From: Pseudobythopirellula maris | GTDB lineage: Bacteria; Planctomycetota; Planctomycetia; Pirellulales; Lacipirellulaceae | Direction of reading: 5' to 3' | Length of the DNA stretch: 64,000 bases | Assembly: GCF_007859945.1 (NCBI RefSeq) | Contig: NZ_SJPQ01000002.1 | Coordinates: forward strand, 410,279 to 474,278 | The notes under the pieces: generated by a model | The model's database searches: none | What the model was told of the DNA's origin: nothing | Seen by the model: only the letters and a program-made list of their open reading frames with translations | Made by a program: the position numbers and the translations under genes | Shown here: one piece after another, positions 28,156 to 61,578 of the stretch | How positions within the stretch are numbered: position 1 is the stretch's first letter | Layout: each line of letters begins with the position of its first letter

Positions 28156-28581
28156 AGGGGGGTAGGTCCTCCCGGGAGGCCGCGGACCCGAAAAGCCGGT
28201 CCCGGCGGCGTGAATCGGCCCCGCGAGCGGGGGCCTTCCACAAGAAAACCTACGTTGCGATCGGACGGGTTGCGCCGGCGGCAGAGGCCCCATCAGACCA
28301 AGGCGGCGGAGCGCAACCCGCTCGTGCGGGTCACAAGGGTTGTGCCCACGGGGGATTGCCGCAGCGGCGTGCGGCATTTGGTCGCGGGTGGGAGGGCTGA
28401 AGTGTGCTCAGACTGGAGTGTGCCCTAGCGTGTCGTCAGTGCAGCTTAGGGCGCCAGCCCAACAAGTACATCTCACTGGCGGCACGCCAGTGGCGCCCTG
28501 CGCGGTGAGAGAACATCACGTTGCTTCGCGATCCCATCCCGATCATACGATTTCGTGAATATACAAGTCCCCTGAAATACC

Positions 28582-29034
28582 TCAAGGAGCCGGTTGTTGA
28601 TGAACACCGAGTCGTGAATCTAGCCGAAGATCCTTTGTCCTCTCACCTTCCGGAGTTATTATCATTACCATGGCATCATCATTTAGTACTGTCTCTACTC
28701 GAATCTCGGATGTCCCTGCAGCCAAATTGAGCTCGGCCATGGTGGGGTTGCCACGGATCATGCCTAACCGGCAAGTTTCTCGCTCGTTGTGCGTGACCGT
28801 AATCCGTTGTTTATCAATCTGAACGTAATTGTCATCCGAACCGATTTTCAACGAATCGAATGAGCGCCGTCCGGAGACCAGATCGGCTAGCTCCATCTTG
28901 AGTTCGGTACATTCCGCATGAACTTCTCCAATACGCCTATCGGCCCACGTTTCGTACCCAATCATGAATATAAGTGCGGCTACCGCTACACCCAAAGGGC
29001 TTCCCCATAGCTGGAAATATTCTTTCGTAGACAT
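28582..29034 (-). CDS. Hypothetical membrane-anchored protein in a lower-GC segment
   Basis: 150 aa. N-terminal TM helix LGVAVAALIFMIGY. No recognisable domain. AT-richer than the flanking genes. Confidence 0.4.
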   Translation of the reverse strand: MSTKEYFQLWGSPLGVAVAALIFMIGYETWADRRIGEVHAECTELKMELADLVSGRRSFDSLKIGSDDNYVQIDKQRITVTHNERETCRLGMIRGNPTMAELNLAAGTSEIRVETVLNDDAMVMIITPEGERTKDLRLDSRLGVHQQPAP

Positions 29035-33788: not shown

Positions 33789-35201
33789 TCAGATGTCGTA
33801 GTACATGCAGAACTCGTACGGGTGCGGCCTGAGGTCGATTTGGCGGATCTCGTTCTGCCGCTTGTAATCGATCCAGGTGCTGATCACGTCTTGGGTGAAG
33901 ACGTCGCCGCGGAGCAGGAACTCGTGGTCGTCCGTCAAGGCGTCGAGCGCTTCGGCGAGCGAGGCGGGGGTCTTCGGCACGTCGGAGAGCTCTTCGGGCG
34001 TGAGGTCGTAGATGTCCTTGTCCAAGGGCTCGCCGGGGTGGATCTTGTTCTGCACGCCGTCGAGCGCCGCCATCATCAGCGCGCTGAAAGCCAGGTAAGG
34101 GTTCGCGCTCGGGTCGGGGCAGCGGAACTCGATCCGCTTGGCCTTGGGGCTGGGCGAGTACATCGGGATGCGGCAGGCGGCCGAGCGGTTGCGCTGGCTG
34201 TAGGCCAGGTTCACGGGCGCCTCGAAGCCGGGGACCAGCCGCTTGTAGCTGTTGGTCGTGGGGTTGGTGAACGCCAAGAGCGCGGGGGCGTGCTTGAGGA
34301 TGCCGCCGAGGGCGAACAGGGCGTCGTCACTCAGGCCGGCGTAGCCGCCGCCGGCGAACAGCGGTTCGCCCCCCTTCCAGAACGAGATGTGCGTGTGCAT
34401 GCCCGAGCCGTTGTCGTTGTAGAGCGGCTTGGGCATGAACGTCACGGTGCGGCCGCCGCGGTGGGCGACGTTCTTGACGATGTACTTGTACAGGCAGAGG
34501 TTGTCCGCCATGCGCACCAGTTCGCCGTACTTCAGGTCGATCTCGCTCTGCCCGGCGGTGGCCACCTCGTGGTGCTGGCACTCGACGTCGAGCCCGCAGT
34601 CGATCATCGACTGCATCATCTCGTTGCGGAGGTTCATCAGCTGGTCGGCCGGCGGGCAGGGGAAGTACCCCTCCTTGTGCCGCAGCTTGTGGCCGAGGTT
34701 CGGCCCCTCGTCGGCGCCGCGGTTCCACTCCGCCTCGCCGCTGTCGAGGAAGTAGAACGCCTCGTTCGGGCGGTGGTCGAACCGCACGTCGTCGAACACG
34801 AAGAACTCGGCCTCGGGACCGATGTAGCACGTGTCGGCAACGCCGGTGCTCTTGAGGTAGTTGGCCGCCTTGCGGGCCACGTTGCGCGGGTCGCGGGTGT
34901 AGTCCTCACGCGTGATCGGGTCCTGCACGTTGCAGATCATGCAGACCGTGGGCAGGTCGGTGAACGGGTCGATGAACGCCGTGTCGGGCTCGGGCACGAG
35001 GAGCATGTCGCTCTCGTTGATCGACTGCCAGCCGCGGATGCTCGAGCCGTCGAACCCGAGGCCCTCTTCGAAGACCGACTCCTCGAGCTTGCCCACCGGG
35101 ATCGTGAAGTGCTGCCACAGCCCGGGGAAGTCCATGAAGCGGAAGTCGACCGCCTTGACATCCTTCTCGCGGCACAGCGTCAAAACTTCTTGCGGGGTCA
35201 T
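33789..35201 (-). CDS. glnA: Glutamine synthetase type I
   Basis: [25 protein letters not shown]... N-terminus. GSGMHTHIS and NPYLAFSA motifs. ~470 aa from the chosen start. Confidence 0.88.
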
Positions 35202-35339
35202 CGCCGGGGGGTCTCGCATGCGGGGAGGGCAAGCGTCGGCGCGCGGCCGACAAAGGCTACTCGCCAGCGTAGCAATCCCCCGCCCGGCGGGCAATGAACC
35301 GCAAGGGCTCACGGCTCGCCATGGCCTTCGGTTGGCGAC

Positions 35340-38300
35340 TCACGCCGACGACCCCGCCGCCAAGCACGCCTCAAGGTGCTCCGCCACAAAGCCGGCCAAA
35401 TCACCCCGCGCCAGGTCGTCTTGCTCGACGAACTTCAGCCGCACGGTGTCGCGGTCTTCGCGATCGACGTTGAGCTCTTGCTCCACGCCGAGCTCGGTGA
35501 TCTGGCCCAGTTGGAAGGCGCCCTTCGGACCGTTGAGCGCTAGCTCCACGTTCTCGGGACGCTTGGTCACCAGCGTGGCCCACGGCTCGGTGCGGCCGGG
35601 GACCATGCGGTGCACCAGCACCTTGTTGTTCCAGAGAAACTCCCCCTTGGGCGACGACTCGGCGACCATCTCGAGCAGCTCCTCCAGCAGCTCGGTCGAC
35701 CAGACGACCTTCTTGCCGGGCGCAAAGCCCTTGCGGGCCAAGTGCCACTTCTGGCCGAGCACTTTCCACGGCATCAGGTCTTCGGGGTTCTGCTCCACGC
35801 GGGTGGCGAACCGCTGGAAGCCCTCGACCGCCTTCTCGACGAATTCCCAGAAGGCGGGCTTGTCGAGCTCCCGCATCGTCAGCGCGGCGATCTGCACCTC
35901 CTGCCAGGGGCCACGGAGGTTCTTGCACTGCACGCGTGGGCCCGAGCCGTAGGCCTCGACGTCGTCCAGATCGTTCAGCGATTTCAGCGCCAGGTCCATC
36001 ACCAGTTGATCGCGTTGGAAGGTCTTTTTGGCGGTGCGGAACTTGAGCTTCACCAGCGCCCGCTCGCCGGTGAGGGCGTGGAAGAACCAGCCGTCCGATT
36101 TCTTCTGGCCGGTGATCTCGACGATCGAGCGGTTGTTCCAGTTGGTGGGGGCAAAATCACCCAACGACTGGATTTTCCGCTCCACGCGGTCGAGCAGCTT
36201 CCCTTCCCACAGGCAGGAAGACCCGTCCCGCGCAACGCGATCTTGGCAATGCCAGCGGCGGCCATCCTCTTCCCAGGGCATTTTGACCCCTTCGCCGACC
36301 TCGTCGAGGTCGAGATCGCCCTGCTGATCGGGGTCGTCGGCCGCGGGGTCGTAGAGCGGCCGCTCCTCATAGGGGCCTTCGGCGAGGATCGGGGCGAGGG
36401 CCAGGGCGGTGTGCGAGGCGGCTGCGGGATTCGGCTTGCCGTTCGCGGAGACTCCGGCGGCCGCGTCCTTCGATTTTTTCTTGCCCTTCTTGCTCGCCCT
36501 GCCGGCGCCCGCGGCCTGCATTTCCTCGACCAGCATCTCGGGCGTCCCCTCGACGACGACCTCGCCGCCGTGCTTGCCCGCCTCCGGACCGATGTCAATC
36601 ACCCAGTCGCACTGCTTGATGACGTCGAGGTTGTGCTCGATCACCACCACCGTGTTGCCCATGTCCACCAGCCGGTGCAGCACGCCGAGCAGCTTGGCCA
36701 GGTCGTCGAAGTGCAGGCCGGTGGTCGGCTCGTCCAAGAGGTAGAGCGTGCGGCCCGTGTCGGGCCGGGCGAGTTCGGAGGCGAGCTTCACGCGCTGCGC
36801 CTCGCCGCCCGAGAGTGTCGGCGCGCTCTGGCCGAGCGTGACGTAGTCGAGTCCCACGTCGCACAGCGTCTTGAGCACGCGGCGGATCTTGGGGATGTTC
36901 GAGAACAGCTTGAGGGCCTCGGCGCACGGCATCGCCAGCACGTCGGCGATCGTCTTCTCGCGGTAGCGGACCGAAAGCGTGTCGGGGTTGTAGCGCTGGC
37001 CCTGGCAGACCTCGCACTCGATCCACACGTCGGGCAGGAAGTGCATCTCGACGCAGGTCTGGCCCGCGCCCTCGCAGGCGTCGCAGCGGCCGCCGGCCAC
37101 GTTGAAGCTGAACTGGCGGGCCGTGTAGCCGCGCAGCTTCGCCTCGGGCAGTTGGGCGAACAGCTGGCGGATGAGGTCGAACGCCCCGGTGTAGGTGGCC
37201 GGGTTGCTCGAGGGCGAATTGCCCAGCGGCGTCTGGTCGACGCGGATCACCTTGTTGATGTGCGACAGGCCGCGGATGCGGTCGTGCTTGCCCGCCACGG
37301 CGCCCGCGCGGTGCAGTGTGCGGGCGAGTTGGTTGAATAAGATCTCGTTCACGAGCGATGACTTGCCCGAGCCCGACACGCCGGTGACGGCCGTCAGGAC
37401 GCCGAGCGGGAAGTCGATGTCGATGTTCTTGAGGTTGTTGTGCCGGGCGCCCTCGACGCGGAGGGTCTGCGCCAACGAACGACGGAGCACGAACGACGCG
37501 TAGTCCTCGACGGTTTCCAGATCGCTGTCGCTCGTCATGAGGAACTCGTCGTTCTCCCGGCCGCCCTCCGGCGCGGTGATCCGTCGGTTCGACGGCACCA
37601 TGATCGCCTTCTTGCCGCTCAAGTAGGGGCCGGTCACGCTCTTGCGTTTCTTCGAGACCTGCTCGGGCGTGCCGTCGGCGACGATCTGGCCGCCGTTCAC
37701 GCCGGCGCCGGGGCCGAAGTCGATCAAGCGGTCGGCGCTCGCCACGACTTCTTTGTCGTGCTCCACGACCAGCAGCGTGTTGCCCAGGTCGCGGAGCTTC
37801 TGCAGCGCCTCGATCAGCCGGGTGTTGTCTCTCGGGTGGAGGCCGATCGTCGGCTCGTCCAGCACGTAGAGCACGCCGACCAGCCCGCTGCCGACCTGGC
37901 TGGCGAGGCGGATCCGCTGGCTCTCGCCGCCCGACAGGCTCGGCGCCGTGCGGCCGAGCGTCAGGTACTCCAGTCCGACGTCCACCAAGAACGTGACGCG
38001 GCTGGAGATCTCACGCACAATCTCGCCGGCGATCTTTTTCTCGCGCTTGTCGAGCTTCCACCCCTGTACTGTCGGCAGGAGTTCGCCGAGCGGCAGGTTG
38101 ACGATCTGGTCGATCGTTTGGCTGCGGAACCGCACGGCCGAGGCGTCGTCGCGCAGCCGGCTGCTGCCGCACTCGCTGCAGTCGATTTCGTCGACGAGGT
38201 GCTCGAGGTGCGAGCGCAGCTTGGGCGAGAGACGCGAGGCCTCTTCCAGGGCGGGGTAGAGGCCCTTGAATTGGAACTTGAGCGGGGCGCTAGTTGAAGA

Positions 38301-41300
38301 ACCGGCTTTGCCTTTCTTGCTTTTACTAACGCCTAGCGCCTCGTTACTCGCAGCTTCATCGAGCGTGACCCACTCGTCGCCCGTGCCGTAGAGCAGCACC
38401 CGGCGGTGGCGGGCGCTGAGGCGGTTGTAGGGCGTGTCCGTGGGCAAGCCGGTGTGCTCGGCGAGCGCGGCGAGCATCGCTTTGGACAAATCGTTCGACA
38501 GGTGCGGCCAGAGCAACACGGCGCCCTGGGCGAGGGTGAGCTCGTCGTCACGCAGCATCGACGCCGGGTTGGCGCCGGTCTGTGTGCCGAGGCCCTCGCA
38601 CGAGGGGCACCATCCCAGTTCGCTATTGAACGAGAAGTTGTGCGGCGTGAGCGACTCGAAACTTCGGCCGCAACCGTCGCACGCCAGGTGCTGGCTGTGG
38701 CGGCGGGTGCGCCAACGCGGCTCGGCGCGCTCGTCCTCGGGGTACGAAACGAGCATCACGCCGTGACCGATCGACAGGGCCGACTCGACCGCCTCGGCGA
38801 TCCGCCCGCGGTAAGAAGGCTTGACCACGATGCGGTCGACCACCACGGCCGCCTCGTGCCGCTGGCGGCGGTCGATGCGCGGCGGGTCCTCCAGGTCGTG
38901 CGTCTGGCCGTCAACCCGCACGCGCCGGAAGCCCGCCTTGCGGAGCTGGGTCCAGAGCTCGGCGTACGAGTCGTTCGGCGCCGGCTCGACCGGGGCCATC
39001 AGCTGCAGCTTGGTCCCCTCGGGCTCGGCCATCACCTTGTCGACCACCTGGTCGGAGGTCTGCGTGCCGATGGGCGTCTCGCACTCGGGGCAGTACGGCG
39101 CGCCGAGGCGGGCGAAGAGCACCCGGAAGTAGTCGTAGATCTCGGTGACCGTGCCCACGGTGGAGCGTGGCGAGTGGCCCATGCTGCGCTGCTCGATCGC
39201 CACGGCGGGCGACAGGCCCTCGATGTGGTCGAGCAGCGGCTTCTGCATCTGGCCGACGAACTGCCGGGCGTAGGAGCTGAGGCTCTCGACGTAGCGGCGT
39301 TGCCCCTCGGCGTAGATCGTGTCCATCGCGAGCGACGACTTGCCCGAGCCGCTCGGGCCGCAGAGCACGGTCATCTCGTCACGGGGGAACTTGGCGTCGA
39401 CGCCGCGCAGGTTGTGCTGCCGCGCGCCGCGCACCTCGATGTGGGTCGCCTGCGGCGCCGCCCGCTTGGGCGCCTTGGCCGTCGGCTTGTCGGCCATCGT
39501 GCCGTCGAGCACCGGGCCGAGCGCCTCGCCCGTGTAGGAACGCAACGCGGGATTGTCACGGGTGTGCTCGACGAGCGCCTCGGGCGTGCCCGAGAAGACC
39601 ACCTGCCCGCCGCCGGCGCCCCCCTCGGGGCCGATGTCGATGAGCCAGTCGGCGGTCTTGATCACGTCGAGGTTGTGCTCCACCACCAGCACCGTGTTGC
39701 CGGCGTCGGCGAAGTTGTGCAGCACGTTGAGCAGCATCTCGATGTCGGCGAAGTGCAGCCCGGTCGTCGGCTCGTCCAAGAGGTAGAGCGTCTTGCCCGT
39801 CGACTTCTTGACCAGCTCTTTGGCGAGCTTGATCCGCTGCGCCTCGCCGCCCGAGAGCGTGGGCGAAGGCTGGCCGATCTTCAGGTAGTCGAGGCCCACC
39901 GCGTGCAGCGTCGAGAGCTTGTGGTTGATCGACGGGATCGCCTCGAAGTGCTCGAGCGCCTGGCAGATGTCCATCTCCAGGGCGTCGGCGATGCTCACGC
40001 CCTTGTACTCGACTTGCAGGGTCTCGCGGTTGAACCGCTTGCCCGCGCACACCTGGCAGGTGACCCACACGTCGGCCAAGAAGTCCATCTCGAGCTTGTT
40101 GGCGCCGTTGCCCTCGCACGCCTCACAGCGTCCGCCGGCCACGTTGAAGCTGAACCGCCCCGGCTTGTAGCCGCGCCGCTTCGACTCGGGCAGCTGGGCG
40201 TAGAGGTTGCGTATGTCGTCGAACACCTTGATGTAGGTGCCCGGGTTGGAGCGCGGCGTGCGGCCGATCGGCGACTGGTCGATCGCGATGATCTTGTCGA
40301 GCTGGTCGACCCCCTCGATGCGGTCGTGGTCGCCCGGCTTGCCCTTGCCCTTCATCAGGTCGCGGAGCAACGCCTCGCGCAAGATGCTGTTCACGAGCGA
40401 GCTCTTGCCCGAGCCCGAAACGCCGGTCACACAGACGAAGGCGCCGAGCGGGATCTCGACCGTGACGTCTTTGAGGTTGTTCTGGCGGGCGCCCACGACG
40501 GTGAGAGTCGGGAAGCCCGCACTCCCCTCCCCTGCCGGGGAAGGGGGATCTTGCAGCCGCCGCGTCTTCGGCACCTCGATCTTCCGCTTGCCGCCGAGGT
40601 ACGCGCCGGTGACGCTCTTGCGTTTCTTCGCGATCTCGTCCGCCGTGCCGACCGCCACGACCTCGCCCCCCTTCACGCCGGGGCCGGGGCCGAAGTCGAT
40701 GAGCAGGTCGGCCGCGCGCATCGTGTCTTCGTCGTGCTCGACCACGACCACGGTGTTGCCCAGGTCGCGCAGGCGGGTGAGCGTTTCGATCAGCCGGTCG
40801 TTGTCGCGCGGGTGGAGGCCGATCGACGGCTCGTCCAAGATGTAGAGCACGCCGACCAGTCCGCAGCCGACCTGCCCCGCCAAGCGTATGCGCTGCGTCT
40901 CGCCGCCCGAGAGCGTCGGCGCCGTGCGGTTGAGCGACAGGTACTCCAGGCCCACGCCGGCGAGGAACCCGAGCCGCCCGCGCACCTCCTTGATCGCCTC
41001 TTCGGCGATCGTGCGTTGCGGCTTGCTGAGCACGAGGTCGGCGAAATAGTCTCCCGCCTCGGAGATCGACAGCTCGCACAGCTCGGGCAGGCTCTTGGTC
41101 GGGGCGCCGGCGAACGCCGGGTTGGCGGTCGTGATCTTCACGCCCCGCGCACGATCGTTGATCCGCTGCCCCTCGCAGTCGGGGCAGTCGATCACCCGCA
41201 TGAACTTCTCGAGCTGGCGGATCTGCATCTGGCTCTGCGTAGAGCGGTACTTCTCCAGCAACTCGGGGATCACGCCCTCGAACTCACCGCCGTACTTTTG

Positions 41301-42518
41301 CGACGACTTGCCGGCGCGCCACGTGTACGTGATGTGCTCCTCGCCCGTGCCCCAGAGCCAAATGTTCTGGTGCTCTTCGGAGAGGTCTTGCCACGGCGTC
41401 TCGAGCAATGTCCCCTCTTCGAGCCCGAGCTTGCGCTCCATCGTGTCGGCCACGCCCTGGAAGATGTGCCGCTTCCAGCGGCCGAGGTCTTTCCATTTGT
41501 CGACCAGCGCAAAGCAGCCCTGGGCGAACGACTTCGTGGGATGCTCGACCAGCCGCTCGGGATCGAACGAGTAGAACTCGCCGATGCCGTCGCAGGTGAG
41601 GCACATGCCGCGTGGGCTGTTGAAGCTGAAGAGCTGCGGCGAGGGGGGCTCGAAGCTCAGCCCGCAGGCGTTGCAGGCGAAGTCGGCCGACAGCGCGATG
41701 TCGCCAGCCTGCAGGCCGGTGCGGCGCTTCTTGGCCGGTTTCTTGGCCGACGGCTTCGACTCCGCCGGCGCCTCGGCCGTGTCGTCCGCCTCGTCGTCCT
41801 CCTCGGGGGCGACGATCAGGGCGCCATCGCCAAGCTTCAGCGCGGCGTCGACCGCCTCGCCCAATCGGCCGCGGATCGAGGGGCCCGCCGTCAGTCGGTC
41901 GACCACCGCCTCGATGTCGTGCCGCACCTGCCGGTCGAGCGTCTGCGACTCGTCGAGCCGCACCATCCGCCCGTCGACACGGGCGCGGACGTAGCCCTGC
42001 TTCTGCAGGTCCTCCAAGAGATCGCGGTGCTCGCCCTTCTGCTGACGCACCACGGGCGCCAGCACGGCGAACTTGCTCCCCTTGGGCAGCGAGAGGATCT
42101 GGCCGATGATCTGCTCGCGCGATTGGGCCGTGATCCGCTCGCCGCAACTCGGGCAGTGGCCCTCGCCGATGCGGGCGAAGATCACGCGCAGGAAGTCGTA
42201 GATCTCGGTGATCGTGCCCACCGTGGACCGCGGGTTGTTGCCCGAGGACTTCTGCGAGATCGAGATCGACGGGCTCAGGCCCGAGATCAAATCGACGTCC
42301 GGCTTGGGCATCTGGCCCAGGAATTGGCGCGCAAAGGTCGACAGGCTCTCGACATAACGCCGTTGACCCTCGGCAAACAGCGTGTCAAACGCCAGCGAGC
42401 TCTTGCCCGAGCCCGACACGCCGGTCAGACAGATCAGCTGGTTGCGCGGCAGCGTAACATCGACATCCCGCAAGTTGTGCTCACGGGCGCCGCGGATGAG
42501 AATATCGGAAGCGGGCAT
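35340..42518 (-). CDS. Giant tandem double-UvrA protein: two complete UvrA-like units (each with two ABC ATPase domains, Zn fingers and a UvrB-binding-like insert) plus a ~310-aa C-terminal domain of unknown function
   Basis: Single uninterrupted 2392-aa ORF. Four Walker A ([10 protein letters not shown] x3, [10 protein letters not shown]) and four LSGGE signatures. Unit 1 is aa 1-~1000 and unit 2 is aa ~1025-2000. The tail is aa ~2080-2392. Confidence 0.85.
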   Translation of the reverse strand: MPASDILIRGAREHNLRDVDVTLPRNQLICLTGVSGSGKSSLAFDTLFAEGQRRYVESLSTFARQFLGQMPKPDVDLISGLSPSISISQKSSGNNPRSTVGTITEIYDFLRVIFARIGEGHCPSCGERITAQSREQIIGQILSLPKGSKFAVLAPVVRQQKGEHRDLLEDLQKQGYVRARVDGRMVRLDESQTLDRQVRHDIEAVVDRLTAGPSIRGRLGEAVDAALKLGDGALIVAPEEDDEADDTAEAPAESKPSAKKPAKKRRTGLQAGDIALSADFACNACGLSFEPPSPQLFSFNSPRGMCLTCDGIGEFYSFDPERLVEHPTKSFAQGCFALVDKWKDLGRWKRHIFQGVADTMERKLGLEEGTLLETPWQDLSEEHQNIWLWGTGEEHITYTWRAGKSSQKYGGEFEGVIPELLEKYRSTQSQMQIRQLEKFMRVIDCPDCEGQRINDRARGVKITTANPAFAGAPTKSLPELCELSISEAGDYFADLVLSKPQRTIAEEAIKEVRGRLGFLAGVGLEYLSLNRTAPTLSGGETQRIRLAGQVGCGLVGVLYILDEPSIGLHPRDNDRLIETLTRLRDLGNTVVVVEHDEDTMRAADLLIDFGPGPGVKGGEVVAVGTADEIAKKRKSVTGAYLGGKRKIEVPKTRRLQDPPSPAGEGSAGFPTLTVVGARQNNLKDVTVEIPLGAFVCVTGVSGSGKSSLVNSILREALLRDLMKGKGKPGDHDRIEGVDQLDKIIAIDQSPIGRTPRSNPGTYIKVFDDIRNLYAQLPESKRRGYKPGRFSFNVAGGRCEACEGNGANKLEMDFLADVWVTCQVCAGKRFNRETLQVEYKGVSIADALEMDICQALEHFEAIPSINHKLSTLHAVGLDYLKIGQPSPTLSGGEAQRIKLAKELVKKSTGKTLYLLDEPTTGLHFADIEMLLNVLHNFADAGNTVLVVEHNLDVIKTADWLIDIGPEGGAGGGQVVFSGTPEALVEHTRDNPALRSYTGEALGPVLDGTMADKPTAKAPKRAAPQATHIEVRGARQHNLRGVDAKFPRDEMTVLCGPSGSGKSSLAMDTIYAEGQRRYVESLSSYARQFVGQMQKPLLDHIEGLSPAVAIEQRSMGHSPRSTVGTVTEIYDYFRVLFARLGAPYCPECETPIGTQTSDQVVDKVMAEPEGTKLQLMAPVEPAPNDSYAELWTQLRKAGFRRVRVDGQTHDLEDPPRIDRRQRHEAAVVVDRIVVKPSYRGRIAEAVESALSIGHGVMLVSYPEDERAEPRWRTRRHSQHLACDGCGRSFESLTPHNFSFNSELGWCPSCEGLGTQTGANPASMLRDDELTLAQGAVLLWPHLSNDLSKAMLAALAEHTGLPTDTPYNRLSARHRRVLLYGTGDEWVTLDEAASNEALGVSKSKKGKAGSSTSAPLKFQFKGLYPALEEASRLSPKLRSHLEHLVDEIDCSECGSSRLRDDASAVRFRSQTIDQIVNLPLGELLPTVQGWKLDKREKKIAGEIVREISSRVTFLVDVGLEYLTLGRTAPSLSGGESQRIRLASQVGSGLVGVLYVLDEPTIGLHPRDNTRLIEALQKLRDLGNTLLVVEHDKEVVASADRLIDFGPGAGVNGGQIVADGTPEQVSKKRKSVTGPYLSGKKAIMVPSNRRITAPEGGRENDEFLMTSDSDLETVEDYASFVLRRSLAQTLRVEGARHNNLKNIDIDFPLGVLTAVTGVSGSGKSSLVNEILFNQLARTLHRAGAVAGKHDRIRGLSHINKVIRVDQTPLGNSPSSNPATYTGAFDLIRQLFAQLPEAKLRGYTARQFSFNVAGGRCDACEGAGQTCVEMHFLPDVWIECEVCQGQRYNPDTLSVRYREKTIADVLAMPCAEALKLFSNIPKIRRVLKTLCDVGLDYVTLGQSAPTLSGGEAQRVKLASELARPDTGRTLYLLDEPTTGLHFDDLAKLLGVLHRLVDMGNTVVVIEHNLDVIKQCDWVIDIGPEAGKHGGEVVVEGTPEMLVEEMQAAGAGRASKKGKKKSKDAAAGVSANGKPNPAAASHTALALAPILAEGPYEERPLYDPAADDPDQQGDLDLDEVGEGVKMPWEEDGRRWHCQDRVARDGSSCLWEGKLLDRVERKIQSLGDFAPTNWNNRSIVEITGQKKSDGWFFHALTGERALVKLKFRTAKKTFQRDQLVMDLALKSLNDLDDVEAYGSGPRVQCKNLRGPWQEVQIAALTMRELDKPAFWEFVEKAVEGFQRFATRVEQNPEDLMPWKVLGQKWHLARKGFAPGKKVVWSTELLEELLEMVAESSPKGEFLWNNKVLVHRMVPGRTEPWATLVTKRPENVELALNGPKGAFQLGQITELGVEQELNVDREDRDTVRLKFVEQDDLARGDLAGFVAEHLEACLAAGSSA

Positions 42519-43525: not shown

Positions 43526-44512
43526 TCAGAGCTGCGTGCCGATGGCGATCAGCACGGCGATGATGATCGCCGCCACAACGAGCGGCCAGGTGCGCACCTG
43601 GCGTTCTTCGGAATCGTCGCCCGCGGACAGGTTCGGGTCGAGCTTCGTCAGCGCCCGGGCGCCCTCCTCGCCGAACTCGTCGATCAGGTGCTGCAACATT
43701 AGCCCCTCGACGGCCCGCGCGCTGAACGGCCGGGCTTCTGGCTCCTTGGCCAGCAGGTGCAGGACCAAGTCGTCGAGCCACGCCGGGCAGTCGACGCCGC
43801 GATCCCGGAGGCTCTTGGGCTGCTTGTGCAGGTGCTGGTCCCACACCTGGGCGAAGTTCGAGCCTTGGTACGGCGGCTGGCCGGCGATCATCTCGTACAT
43901 CACGCAACCGAGCGAGTAGAGATCGGCCTTGCCGTCGATCCGCGCGTCGGCCGTGATCTGCTCGGGAGACATGTAGAGGTACGTCCCCACGGTCATCCCC
44001 TGCTGGGTGATGTCGCTCGTGGCGAACGAGTCGCGCGCGATGCCGAAATCGCCCAGCACCAGCCCACCGTCTTGGTTGAAGAACAAGTTGCTCGGCTTCA
44101 GGTCGCGGTGGACGATGCCGTGGTTGTGGGCGTGCTGCAACGCCGAGGCGATCTGCACGCCGTAGGCCGCCGCCTGAGGCCAAGGGATCCGGCCCTTCGC
44201 CATGCGGCCTTTGAGCGACCCGTGCTCGAGCAGCTGCATGGCGTAGAAATACTGCCCATCGAGAACGCCGCCGCCGTAGTTCCGCACGATGTGCGGGTGG
44301 TTCAGGCGCTCCATGATCATGATCTCGCGCTCGAAGCGGTCGACGATCTTGGGATCGCCCGACACGCTCGGCAGCAAGAGCTTGATGGCGACCGGTTCTT
44401 CGAGTTCCGGACTGGTGGCCCGGTAGACCACGCCGACCGTGCCCGAGCCGATCTGCTTGCCCAACGTGAAGTTGGTCTTGGTCGGCAGGAAACGGAGTTT
44501 GCTGGTCGACAT
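43526..44512 (-). CDS. Ser/Thr protein kinase with C-terminal TM anchor
   Basis: GKQIGSGTVGVVYRA...AIK, HRDLKPSN, DFG and SPE motifs. C-terminal LVVAAIIIAVLIAIG. Confidence 0.85.
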   Translation of the reverse strand: MSTSKLRFLPTKTNFTLGKQIGSGTVGVVYRATSPELEEPVAIKLLLPSVSGDPKIVDRFEREIMIMERLNHPHIVRNYGGGVLDGQYFYAMQLLEHGSLKGRMAKGRIPWPQAAAYGVQIASALQHAHNHGIVHRDLKPSNLFFNQDGGLVLGDFGIARDSFATSDITQQGMTVGTYLYMSPEQITADARIDGKADLYSLGCVMYEMIAGQPPYQGSNFAQVWDQHLHKQPKSLRDRGVDCPAWLDDLVLHLLAKEPEARPFSARAVEGLMLQHLIDEFGEEGARALTKLDPNLSAGDDSEERQVRTWPLVVAAIIIAVLIAIGTQL

Positions 44513-61504: not shown

Positions 61505-61578
61505 CGGGGCGTGGCGCAGCCTGGTAGCGCGACTGCTTTGGGAGCAGTAGGTCGCACGTTCGAATCGTGTCGCCCCGA
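61505..61578 (+). tRNA. tRNA-Pro (anticodon TGG)
   Basis: Cloverleaf read by eye. Acceptor CGGGGCG/CGCCCCG. D-stem GCGC/GCGC with AGCCTGGTA loop. Anticodon stem ACTGC/GCAGT with loop TTTGGGA (34-36 = TGG; G37). T-arm GCACG-TTCGAAT-CGTGT. Discriminator A. CCA not encoded. Confidence 0.8.

Follow-up and report, generated by a model that had tools for sequence, protein, structure and literature searches.

The stretch of DNA analysed here (the window) comprises 64,000 nucleotides of the Pseudobythopirellula maris genome (contig NZ_SJPQ01000002.1, positions 410,279 to 474,278, forward strand). Its minus strand carries a uvrA gene whose product ends in an additional region of 313 amino acids (aa), referred to below as the C-terminal domain (CTD). 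UvrA is the universal bacterial sensor of nucleotide excision repair (NER), and its mechanism is understood as that of a symmetric dimer. The gene is organized as follows.

35340..42518, minus strand: uvrA gene, fused double UvrA with C-terminal extension, 2392 aa, stop codon TGA at 35340-35342
39504..42518, minus strand: UvrA unit 1 (aa 1-1005), matched by NF001503 over aa 4-1004, with two Walker A and two LSGGE motifs and the canonical tail RSYTGEALGPVL at its end
aa 1006-1029: short inter-unit linker
36519..39431, minus strand: UvrA unit 2 (aa 1030-2000), in which the UvrB-binding, insertion, Zn-finger and ABC motifs recur intact
35343..36281, minus strand: whole CTD (aa 2080-2392), the C-terminal 313 aa

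The open reading frame (ORF) at 35340..42518 contained no internal stop, and its last codon lay at 35343. Both equivalog models for UvrA matched the protein in several stretches over the two units, namely NF001503 (2576 bits against a cutoff of 1147, E=0) and TIGR00630 (2512 bits against a cutoff of 729.8, E=0). The Pfam domains UvrA_inter and UvrA_DNA-bind were each found twice, and the translation contained four Walker A motifs (GxSGSGKSS), four LSGGE motifs and CxxC pairs. The protein therefore joins two complete UvrA units of class I head to tail. Because both units retain the Walker A and signature motifs, the UvrB-binding and insertion domains and the Zn modules, the protein looks like a working NER sensor with an add-on rather than a diverted paralogue. 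That two uvrA genes are fused in Planctomycetes has already been published (PMC8567305); in the available text of that paper, only the duplication is described and domains are assigned by Pfam, and Pfam lacks a CTD model. The window protein differs from the chlamydial double UvrA (NF001885 / PRK00635), for which it scored 1332.7 bits against a cutoff of 3054, with the best stretch covering only part of the model.

The CTD was first judged as a coding and folding unit. Its GC content at the three codon positions (0.67/0.40/0.88) resembled that of the rest of the gene, with 0.88 at the third position compared to 0.92 for the whole gene. The ratio of nonsynonymous to synonymous substitution rates (dN/dS) was about 0.2 against its closest relatives. 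Conservation was profiled as the mean identity per 40-aa block among 52 full-length orthologues from related genomes. Block identity was 0.52-0.76 over aa 2081-2360 and 0.41 in the last 32 residues of the CTD, compared to 0.8-0.93 in the ATPase cores, 0.53-0.69 in the UvrB-binding and insertion domains, and 0.15-0.30 in the linkers. AlphaFold2 predicted the fold of the CTD with a mean predicted local distance difference test (pLDDT) score of 87.4 and a predicted template modelling (pTM) score of 0.58 from a 39-sequence alignment. When the model started from aa 2035 and used 63 sequences, including members only 26-31% identical, these values rose to 92.1 and 0.72. The composition of this ~36-kDa region was ordinary. 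Therefore, the CTD is a folded domain under purifying selection.

These results bear out a sequence-only reading of the same DNA, which had described the region as a globular domain with no similarity to UvrA and no recognizable motif. The best BLASTP match between the CTD and the UvrA part of its own protein had E=3.3, which is not significant, and the CTD had no match in any family library tried, namely Pfam, NCBIfam, PADLOC and PHROGs, nor in the PDB sequences when these were searched by profile. That reading had also named two outcomes that would speak against a new domain. The first was a confident match to a well-known domain; no confident match to a well-known enzymatic domain was obtained, and a Foldseek search of the CTD against the PDB returned nothing significant. 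The second was a disordered or composition-biased region, and neither disorder nor bias was seen.

The reading had further assumed a single domain of ~310 aa, whereas our profile comparisons divide the CTD into two related halves. HHalign aligned the halves with each other at a probability of 95.5% (E 1.4e-8) using 39 sequences and of 99.0% (E 9e-18) using 71 sequences. The CTD is thus an internal tandem duplication of an alpha/beta module of ~150 aa, which is new in this analysis. The two modules are given below.

35778..36281, minus strand: CTD module 1 (aa 2080-2247), an N-terminal PW-x3-G-x2-WH...G-x4-W segment, then alpha-beta3-alpha-beta2-alpha
35343..35777, minus strand: CTD module 2 (aa 2248-2392), the second, more divergent copy, opening MPWKVLGQKWH..., pLDDT 93-98

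In the AlphaFold2 models, both modules open with M-P-W-x3-G-x2-W-H ... G-x4-W and continue as alpha-beta3-alpha-beta2-alpha. The invariant columns among 63 sequences were mostly Trp and were paired across the copies (W3/W172, W10/W179, W25/W194 and W48/W217, plus W65). Further invariant residues were H11/H180, H68, R82, R116, Y111, T71/T239, P2, G7 and G20. Module 1 was better conserved than module 2, and conserved basic and aromatic residues lay on the strands, with KLKFR on beta3 and GWFFHA on beta2. Some divergent members (among P0196, P0192, P0165 and P0175) carried insertions in the loop between helix 1 and strand 1 of module 1, at ~aa 2120, of up to ~40 aa in P0196. In P0175, a segment rich in KTS/KSQN repeats was aligned where the N-terminal Trp-rich motif stands.

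Three segments separate the last ABC ATPase domain from the CTD.

36417..36518, minus strand: variable Lys/Ala-rich insert (aa 2001-2034), preceding the canonical UvrA tail, block identity 0.19
36372..36416, minus strand: canonical UvrA C-terminal tail motif SHTALALAPILAEGP (aa 2035-2049), consensus SHT..AL.PVLAAGP, in short S-H/Y-T..L...L
36282..36371, minus strand: acidic prelude (aa 2050-2079), 28-31 aa in all orthologues, pLDDT 68-77

Translation confirmed the protein positions given in the sequence-only reading: ASKKGKKKSK starts at aa 2008, SHTALALAPIL at aa 2035 and MPWEEDGRRWHCQ at aa 2080, which corresponds to window position 36281, so that aa 2080-2392 equals 36281..35343. The order of the parts needed revision. 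A Lys-rich linker had been placed after the end of UvrA; the Lys-rich stretch exists, but it precedes the canonical tail motif, which recurs as SYTGEALGPVL at the end of unit 1 and in its second copy (aa 2035-2049) is predicted as a helix with a pLDDT of about 75. The insert varies from 1 to 37 aa among the orthologues, with a median isoelectric point (pI) of 10.6. The start of the extension also shifted, since conservation begins ~30 aa upstream of aa 2080, within the acidic segment. This prelude had a net charge of -9 in the window protein (median -3 among orthologues) and a partly conserved D.DI..VG+D motif directly before module 1. The CTD is tethered to the last ABC ATPase domain via a variable Lys-rich insert, a canonical UvrA tail and an acidic segment of fixed length.

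The term "orphan", which had been applied to the domain, does not hold. A word-indexed search matched 370 proteins; among those with a source name, nearly all were designated excinuclease ABC subunit A, and the organism labels were Planctomycetota lineages. An HMMER scan of 1.84 billion representatives clustered at 50% identity gave 643 matches at E<=0.001, including full-length proteins of 2334-2343 aa, and the CTD was present in the genomes of at least 568 GTDB species. Among the best 80 loci, 79 were labelled Planctomycetota (Lacipirellulaceae, Aeoliella, Botrimarina, Bythopirellula, Adhaeretor), and the lone exception was a 2.7-kb contig binned as Hydrogenedentales. The nearest relatives of the window CTD among the matches listed were Botrimarina- and Aeoliella-like Lacipirellulaceae, with 67-74% CTD identity. 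A divergent branch with 26-31% identity includes a metagenome-assembled genome (MAG) labelled Phycisphaerae, and the CTD is carried also by Planctomyces sp. SH-PL14 and by Thermoguttaceae. Thus, the CTD spans at least two classes of Planctomycetota. Every member examined or named was attached to UvrA and came from this phylum.

The possibility of a non-functional tail was weighed against the same matches. Under this explanation, the CTD would be low in complexity or disordered, would result from reading through a stop codon that was mis-assembled, or would be a separate gene joined in error. Many short CTD-only proteins of 312-450 aa occur in the databases, some of them on long contigs, and would agree with a separate gene. 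However, these short proteins came from contigs on which the upstream UvrA is shattered into small frameshifted genes. For example, P0045 and P0067 (312-322 aa, on contigs of 62-117 kb) follow a UvrA broken into several small genes. In 52 loci with enough upstream sequence, from independent genomes, the ORF ran uninterrupted from stop to stop over 2250 codons or more (up to 2524). Together with the conservation profile, the high-confidence fold prediction and the low dN/dS, these ORFs refute the explanation.

Candidate stand-alone CTD genes, many of them matches of 312-600 aa, were rejected as contig-end fragments or frameshifted assemblies. The sequence-only reading had proposed a search for the domain standing alone or joined to other repair proteins; no robust stand-alone CTD or non-UvrA fusion was found, a result that covers the best 150 of the 643 HMMER matches. 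Short ORFs among the related loci belonged mostly to long-read MAGs, and a shattered 7-kb uvrA was seen in twelve loci of apparently long-read MAGs (L024, L026-L028, L051, L053, L055, L057, L058, L063, L084 and L085). Proteins consisting of the CTD only or of the CTD and a partial ABC domain on very long contigs (e.g., P0029, P0034, P0045, P0067, P0093 and P0114) were frameshift artefacts, and some CTD fragments in public databases are annotated as hypothetical proteins.

A natural split of the gene was found in a low-GC (43%) Thermoguttaceae lineage, in which uvrA is divided at the linker between nucleotide-binding domains I and II (NBD-I and NBD-II) of unit 2. The two genes encode 1702 aa (L081, 4471-9579) and 708 aa, the latter comprising NBD-II plus the CTD (L081, 10001-12127); the same was seen in L082 and L083. 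The spacer of 421 bp has 37% GC and stops in every frame, and it was identical in the three assemblies. This arrangement, in which an ABC ATPase is divided between its two nucleotide-binding domains, occurred on more than 100 contigs. Since the split leaves the CTD with NBD-II of unit 2, it argues for a functional coupling of the CTD to UvrA.

Other irregular genes were also observed. P0140 (945 aa) and P0150 (958 aa) have an N-terminus of ~250 aa of Lys/Ser/Thr-rich low-complexity sequence, followed by only the NBD-II half of UvrA and the CTD; they may represent a similar split in which the linker has expanded, or genes whose N-terminus was miscalled. In the complete genome of Planctomyces sp. 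SH-PL14, the annotated UvrA WP_075091369.1 / AMV16565.1 (P0124, 1096 aa) starts partway into the second unit (MSRTFVELTPQNFSFNS...), which may reflect a frameshift, a pseudogene or a further natural split.

This constant attachment would suit an intramolecular role, in which the CTD and the acidic prelude fold back on the fused dimer as a regulator or structural element. They could cap a UvrB-binding site or the DNA groove (autoinhibition, DNA mimicry), or they could stabilize the single-chain head-to-head arrangement; binding of DNA or ATP would then release them. The CTD stays with NBD-II even in the naturally split gene and was not found detached from UvrA among the inspected matches. Furthermore, whereas the Lys-rich insert is variable, the prelude is constant in length and has a motif that is conserved in part, and prelude and UvrA tail reached a pLDDT of 68-77 when modelled with the CTD. 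Against this stands the chlamydial-type double UvrA: with 1809 positions, NF001885 spans about two UvrA units, and no NCBIfam model is matched by the CTD on its own, so the fusion itself needs no CTD. We consider the intramolecular role unlikely.

The predicted fold was then compared with known structures. The matches are listed with their paired scores.

YdhG-like frataxin of Listeria (9t2w): 9.0 / 9.4
DUF419 protein DR2400: 8.2 / 7.8
DUF419 protein YjbR: 7.9 / 7.1
DUF419 protein PSPTO_3016: 7.8 / 7.2
T4 MotA C-terminal domain bound to DNA (5jlt): 6.9 / 6.7
Nqo15: 6.3 / 6.3
CyaY, type III secretion chaperones, FP domains and bilin reductases: about 4.5-6.2

The leading matches aligned ~100-109 residues, which corresponds to one module, and none spanned both. 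Four of the five best structural relatives were double-wing proteins. By its model, each module falls into the two-layer alpha-beta3-alpha-beta2-alpha fold class of YdhG/DUF1801, YjbR/DUF419, the MotA C-terminal domain ("double-wing") and frataxin-like proteins. As no link was found at the sequence level, the CTD resembles a fold class and is not a member of any named family.

Each of these relatives differs from the CTD in a specific way. The YjbR/DUF419 family (PF04237; 2fki of E. coli YjbR, 2a1v of D. radiodurans DR2400 and 2kfp of P. syringae PSPTO_3016) has a double-wing alpha/beta fold in common with the module, with a sequence identity of 4-11% in the superpositions. The YjbR signature HLNKxHWxTV is absent from the CTD, whose modules add an N-terminal Trp-rich segment of ~26 aa and, unlike YjbR, form a tandem pair fused to an ATPase. 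The YdhG-like/DUF1801 protein (PF08818; Listeria 9t2w) has a similar fold at 11% identity, and PF08818 matched neither the window CTD nor 39 aligned members. YdhG/Fra proteins occur on their own and have been connected with iron and heme metabolism, and the CTD invariants are Trp, His and Arg rather than acidic residues. The C-terminal domain of T4 MotA (MotCF, 1kaf / 5jlt), the founding double-wing domain, is a single sequence-specific module of a transcription factor. Its likeness to the CTD was weak (Foldseek E 0.036-0.35), with no shared motif detectable. The homeodomain-like family HTH_32 (PF13565) was rejected as a candidate: the best scores in 14 of the 39 members were 27-32 bits, below the cutoff of 33.7, and no single stretch passed; the matched segment, which is equivalent in either module, is not a helix-turn-helix in the model but consists of an extended loop followed by one helix and one strand.

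A further explanation is a sensor for a small ligand or a metal, resembling either the iron-type frataxin/YdhG proteins or the bilin reductases, through which repair would respond to a metabolic or redox signal. Such a sensor could use the invariant His residues (H11, H68 and H180) and the clusters of invariant Trp. However, the acidic ridge of frataxin/CyaY (helix 1 and strand 1), which binds iron or a partner, was not present in the CTD; the invariant set is Trp/His/Arg/Tyr/Thr/Gly, and no Cys/His metal motif was seen. A bilin-reductase sandwich would span both modules, and no structural match did. A sensor of this kind is therefore highly improbable.

We favor the explanation that the CTD is a flexibly tethered accessory DNA-binding module of the single-chain UvrA dimer, at a probability of roughly 0.35. 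The planctomycete protein carries a C-terminal accessory domain of two homologous modules that arose by internal duplication. These tandem modules would form an additional handle on nucleic acid, working in cis with the damage sensor. The handle might, for example, hold the DNA flanking the ~30-bp UvrA footprint or read a DNA feature, and it would give the asymmetric fused dimer a polarity or a substrate range absent from the symmetric UvrA2. This role is favored because most of the best structural relatives are double-wing proteins, because the host protein is a DNA-scanning ATPase, because conserved Lys, Arg and aromatic residues lie on the strands (KLKFR, GWFFHA, R82 and R116), and because the Lys-rich insert adjoins the CTD. 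YjbR/DUF419 and MotCF define the double-wing motif, for which DNA binding has been proposed or shown, although DNA binding of YjbR itself is only predicted (PMC7641849, PMC3424535).

Several results weigh against a DNA-binding handle. The CTD is not basic, with a median pI of 6.5 and a net charge of about -2. The top structural match is frataxin-like, and the best Foldseek score against the PDB for MotA, E 0.036, was not significant. The central strand is conserved and hydrophobic on both faces (W65/F67/A69 and F66/H68/L70), which suggests that the sheet face presumed to contact DNA in double-wing proteins may here lie beneath the Trp-rich N-terminal segment. Sequence comparison with the double-wing family was negative as well. 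PF04237 did not match the window CTD or the 39 aligned members even at E<=1, and HHalign of module 1 or 2 (71-sequence profiles) against YjbR or a YjbR profile gave a probability of 0.3% or less. The YjbR query was identical to 2fki_A, and its profile, built from 106 homologues and two PDB fragments, was shallow (enterobacterial sequences 78-100% identical). Homology to YjbR/DUF419 was rejected on these comparisons with YjbR and with its shallow family profile.

A more specific function is conceivable by analogy, in which the tandem Trp/His-rich modules would be a nucleic-acid reader not recognized before, e.g., one whose aromatic pocket accepts a DNA structure or a base that is flipped, damaged or modified. 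The idea draws on McrB-N, which has a distantly related fold and flips 5-methylcytosine, and on YjbR modules fused to EVE modified-base readers (PMC3424535, PMC7641849). Such a reader is improbable; if true, it would add a second, UvrA-independent recognition step and a new way to extend or polarize damage sensing in bacterial NER.

Protein-protein docking is almost as likely as the DNA-contacting role. The modules would recruit, or be recruited by, UvrB, Mfd, RNA polymerase or a nucleoid- or membrane-associated factor, using beta-sheet or helix surfaces as in frataxin, Nqo15, type III secretion chaperones and FP domains. The near-neutral charge of the CTD agrees with this explanation, and recruitment modules typically hang on a tether that is long and flexible, as here. 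In Tuwongella immobilis, which is considered here for its fractionation only, the UvrABCD subunits are all SDS-soluble, compared to Tris-soluble in E. coli, according to the available text of the report (PMC8567305). By analogy, this fractionation hints at an association absent from E. coli. Nevertheless, the fold likeness is equally weak for every protein-binding relative. In addition, no conserved neighboring gene points to a partner: among 80 related loci, no conserved neighbors or operon partners of uvrA were found.

A glutamine synthetase gene on the same strand (33789..35312, minus strand, Gln-synt_N and Gln-synt_C) starts ~17-27 nt past the uvrA stop (window 35310-35342), and glnA stood next to uvrA in this window only (0 of the 80 related loci). 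A Ser/Thr kinase gene upstream of uvrA (43526..44512) was common to five loci only, with weaker or partial matches in two more. No RNA elements or terminators of note were found within the region; a tRNA gene at 61505-61578 (plus strand) was the sole Rfam match at gathering level in the 64-kb window. At 28500-28999, the GC content dipped to 0.50, compared to 0.61-0.74 in the rest of the window, and this dip overlaps a 150-aa ORF (28582..29034, minus strand) with no Pfam match.

Domain accretion is common on repair proteins. The CTD is a case of this kind, an unnamed, duplicated accessory domain of a known repair protein with a known fold class, and no description of it appeared in the literature found on planctomycete or chlamydial UvrA or on DUF1801/YdhG. 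It is conserved in every planctomycete UvrA examined, in at least 568 species, and has no family model. A domain family entry is merited and would correct the annotation of metagenome fragments now called "hypothetical protein" or "partial UvrA". Planctomycetota hold the UvrA dimer in one chain and add a conserved tandem domain of ~36 kDa at one end only. Therefore, under any of the proposed roles, the sensor is intrinsically asymmetric, which is the most interesting consequence of the CTD. Whether its ligand is DNA, UvrB, Mfd, RNA polymerase or another partner bears on whether this phylum altered the finding of lesions or their handover.

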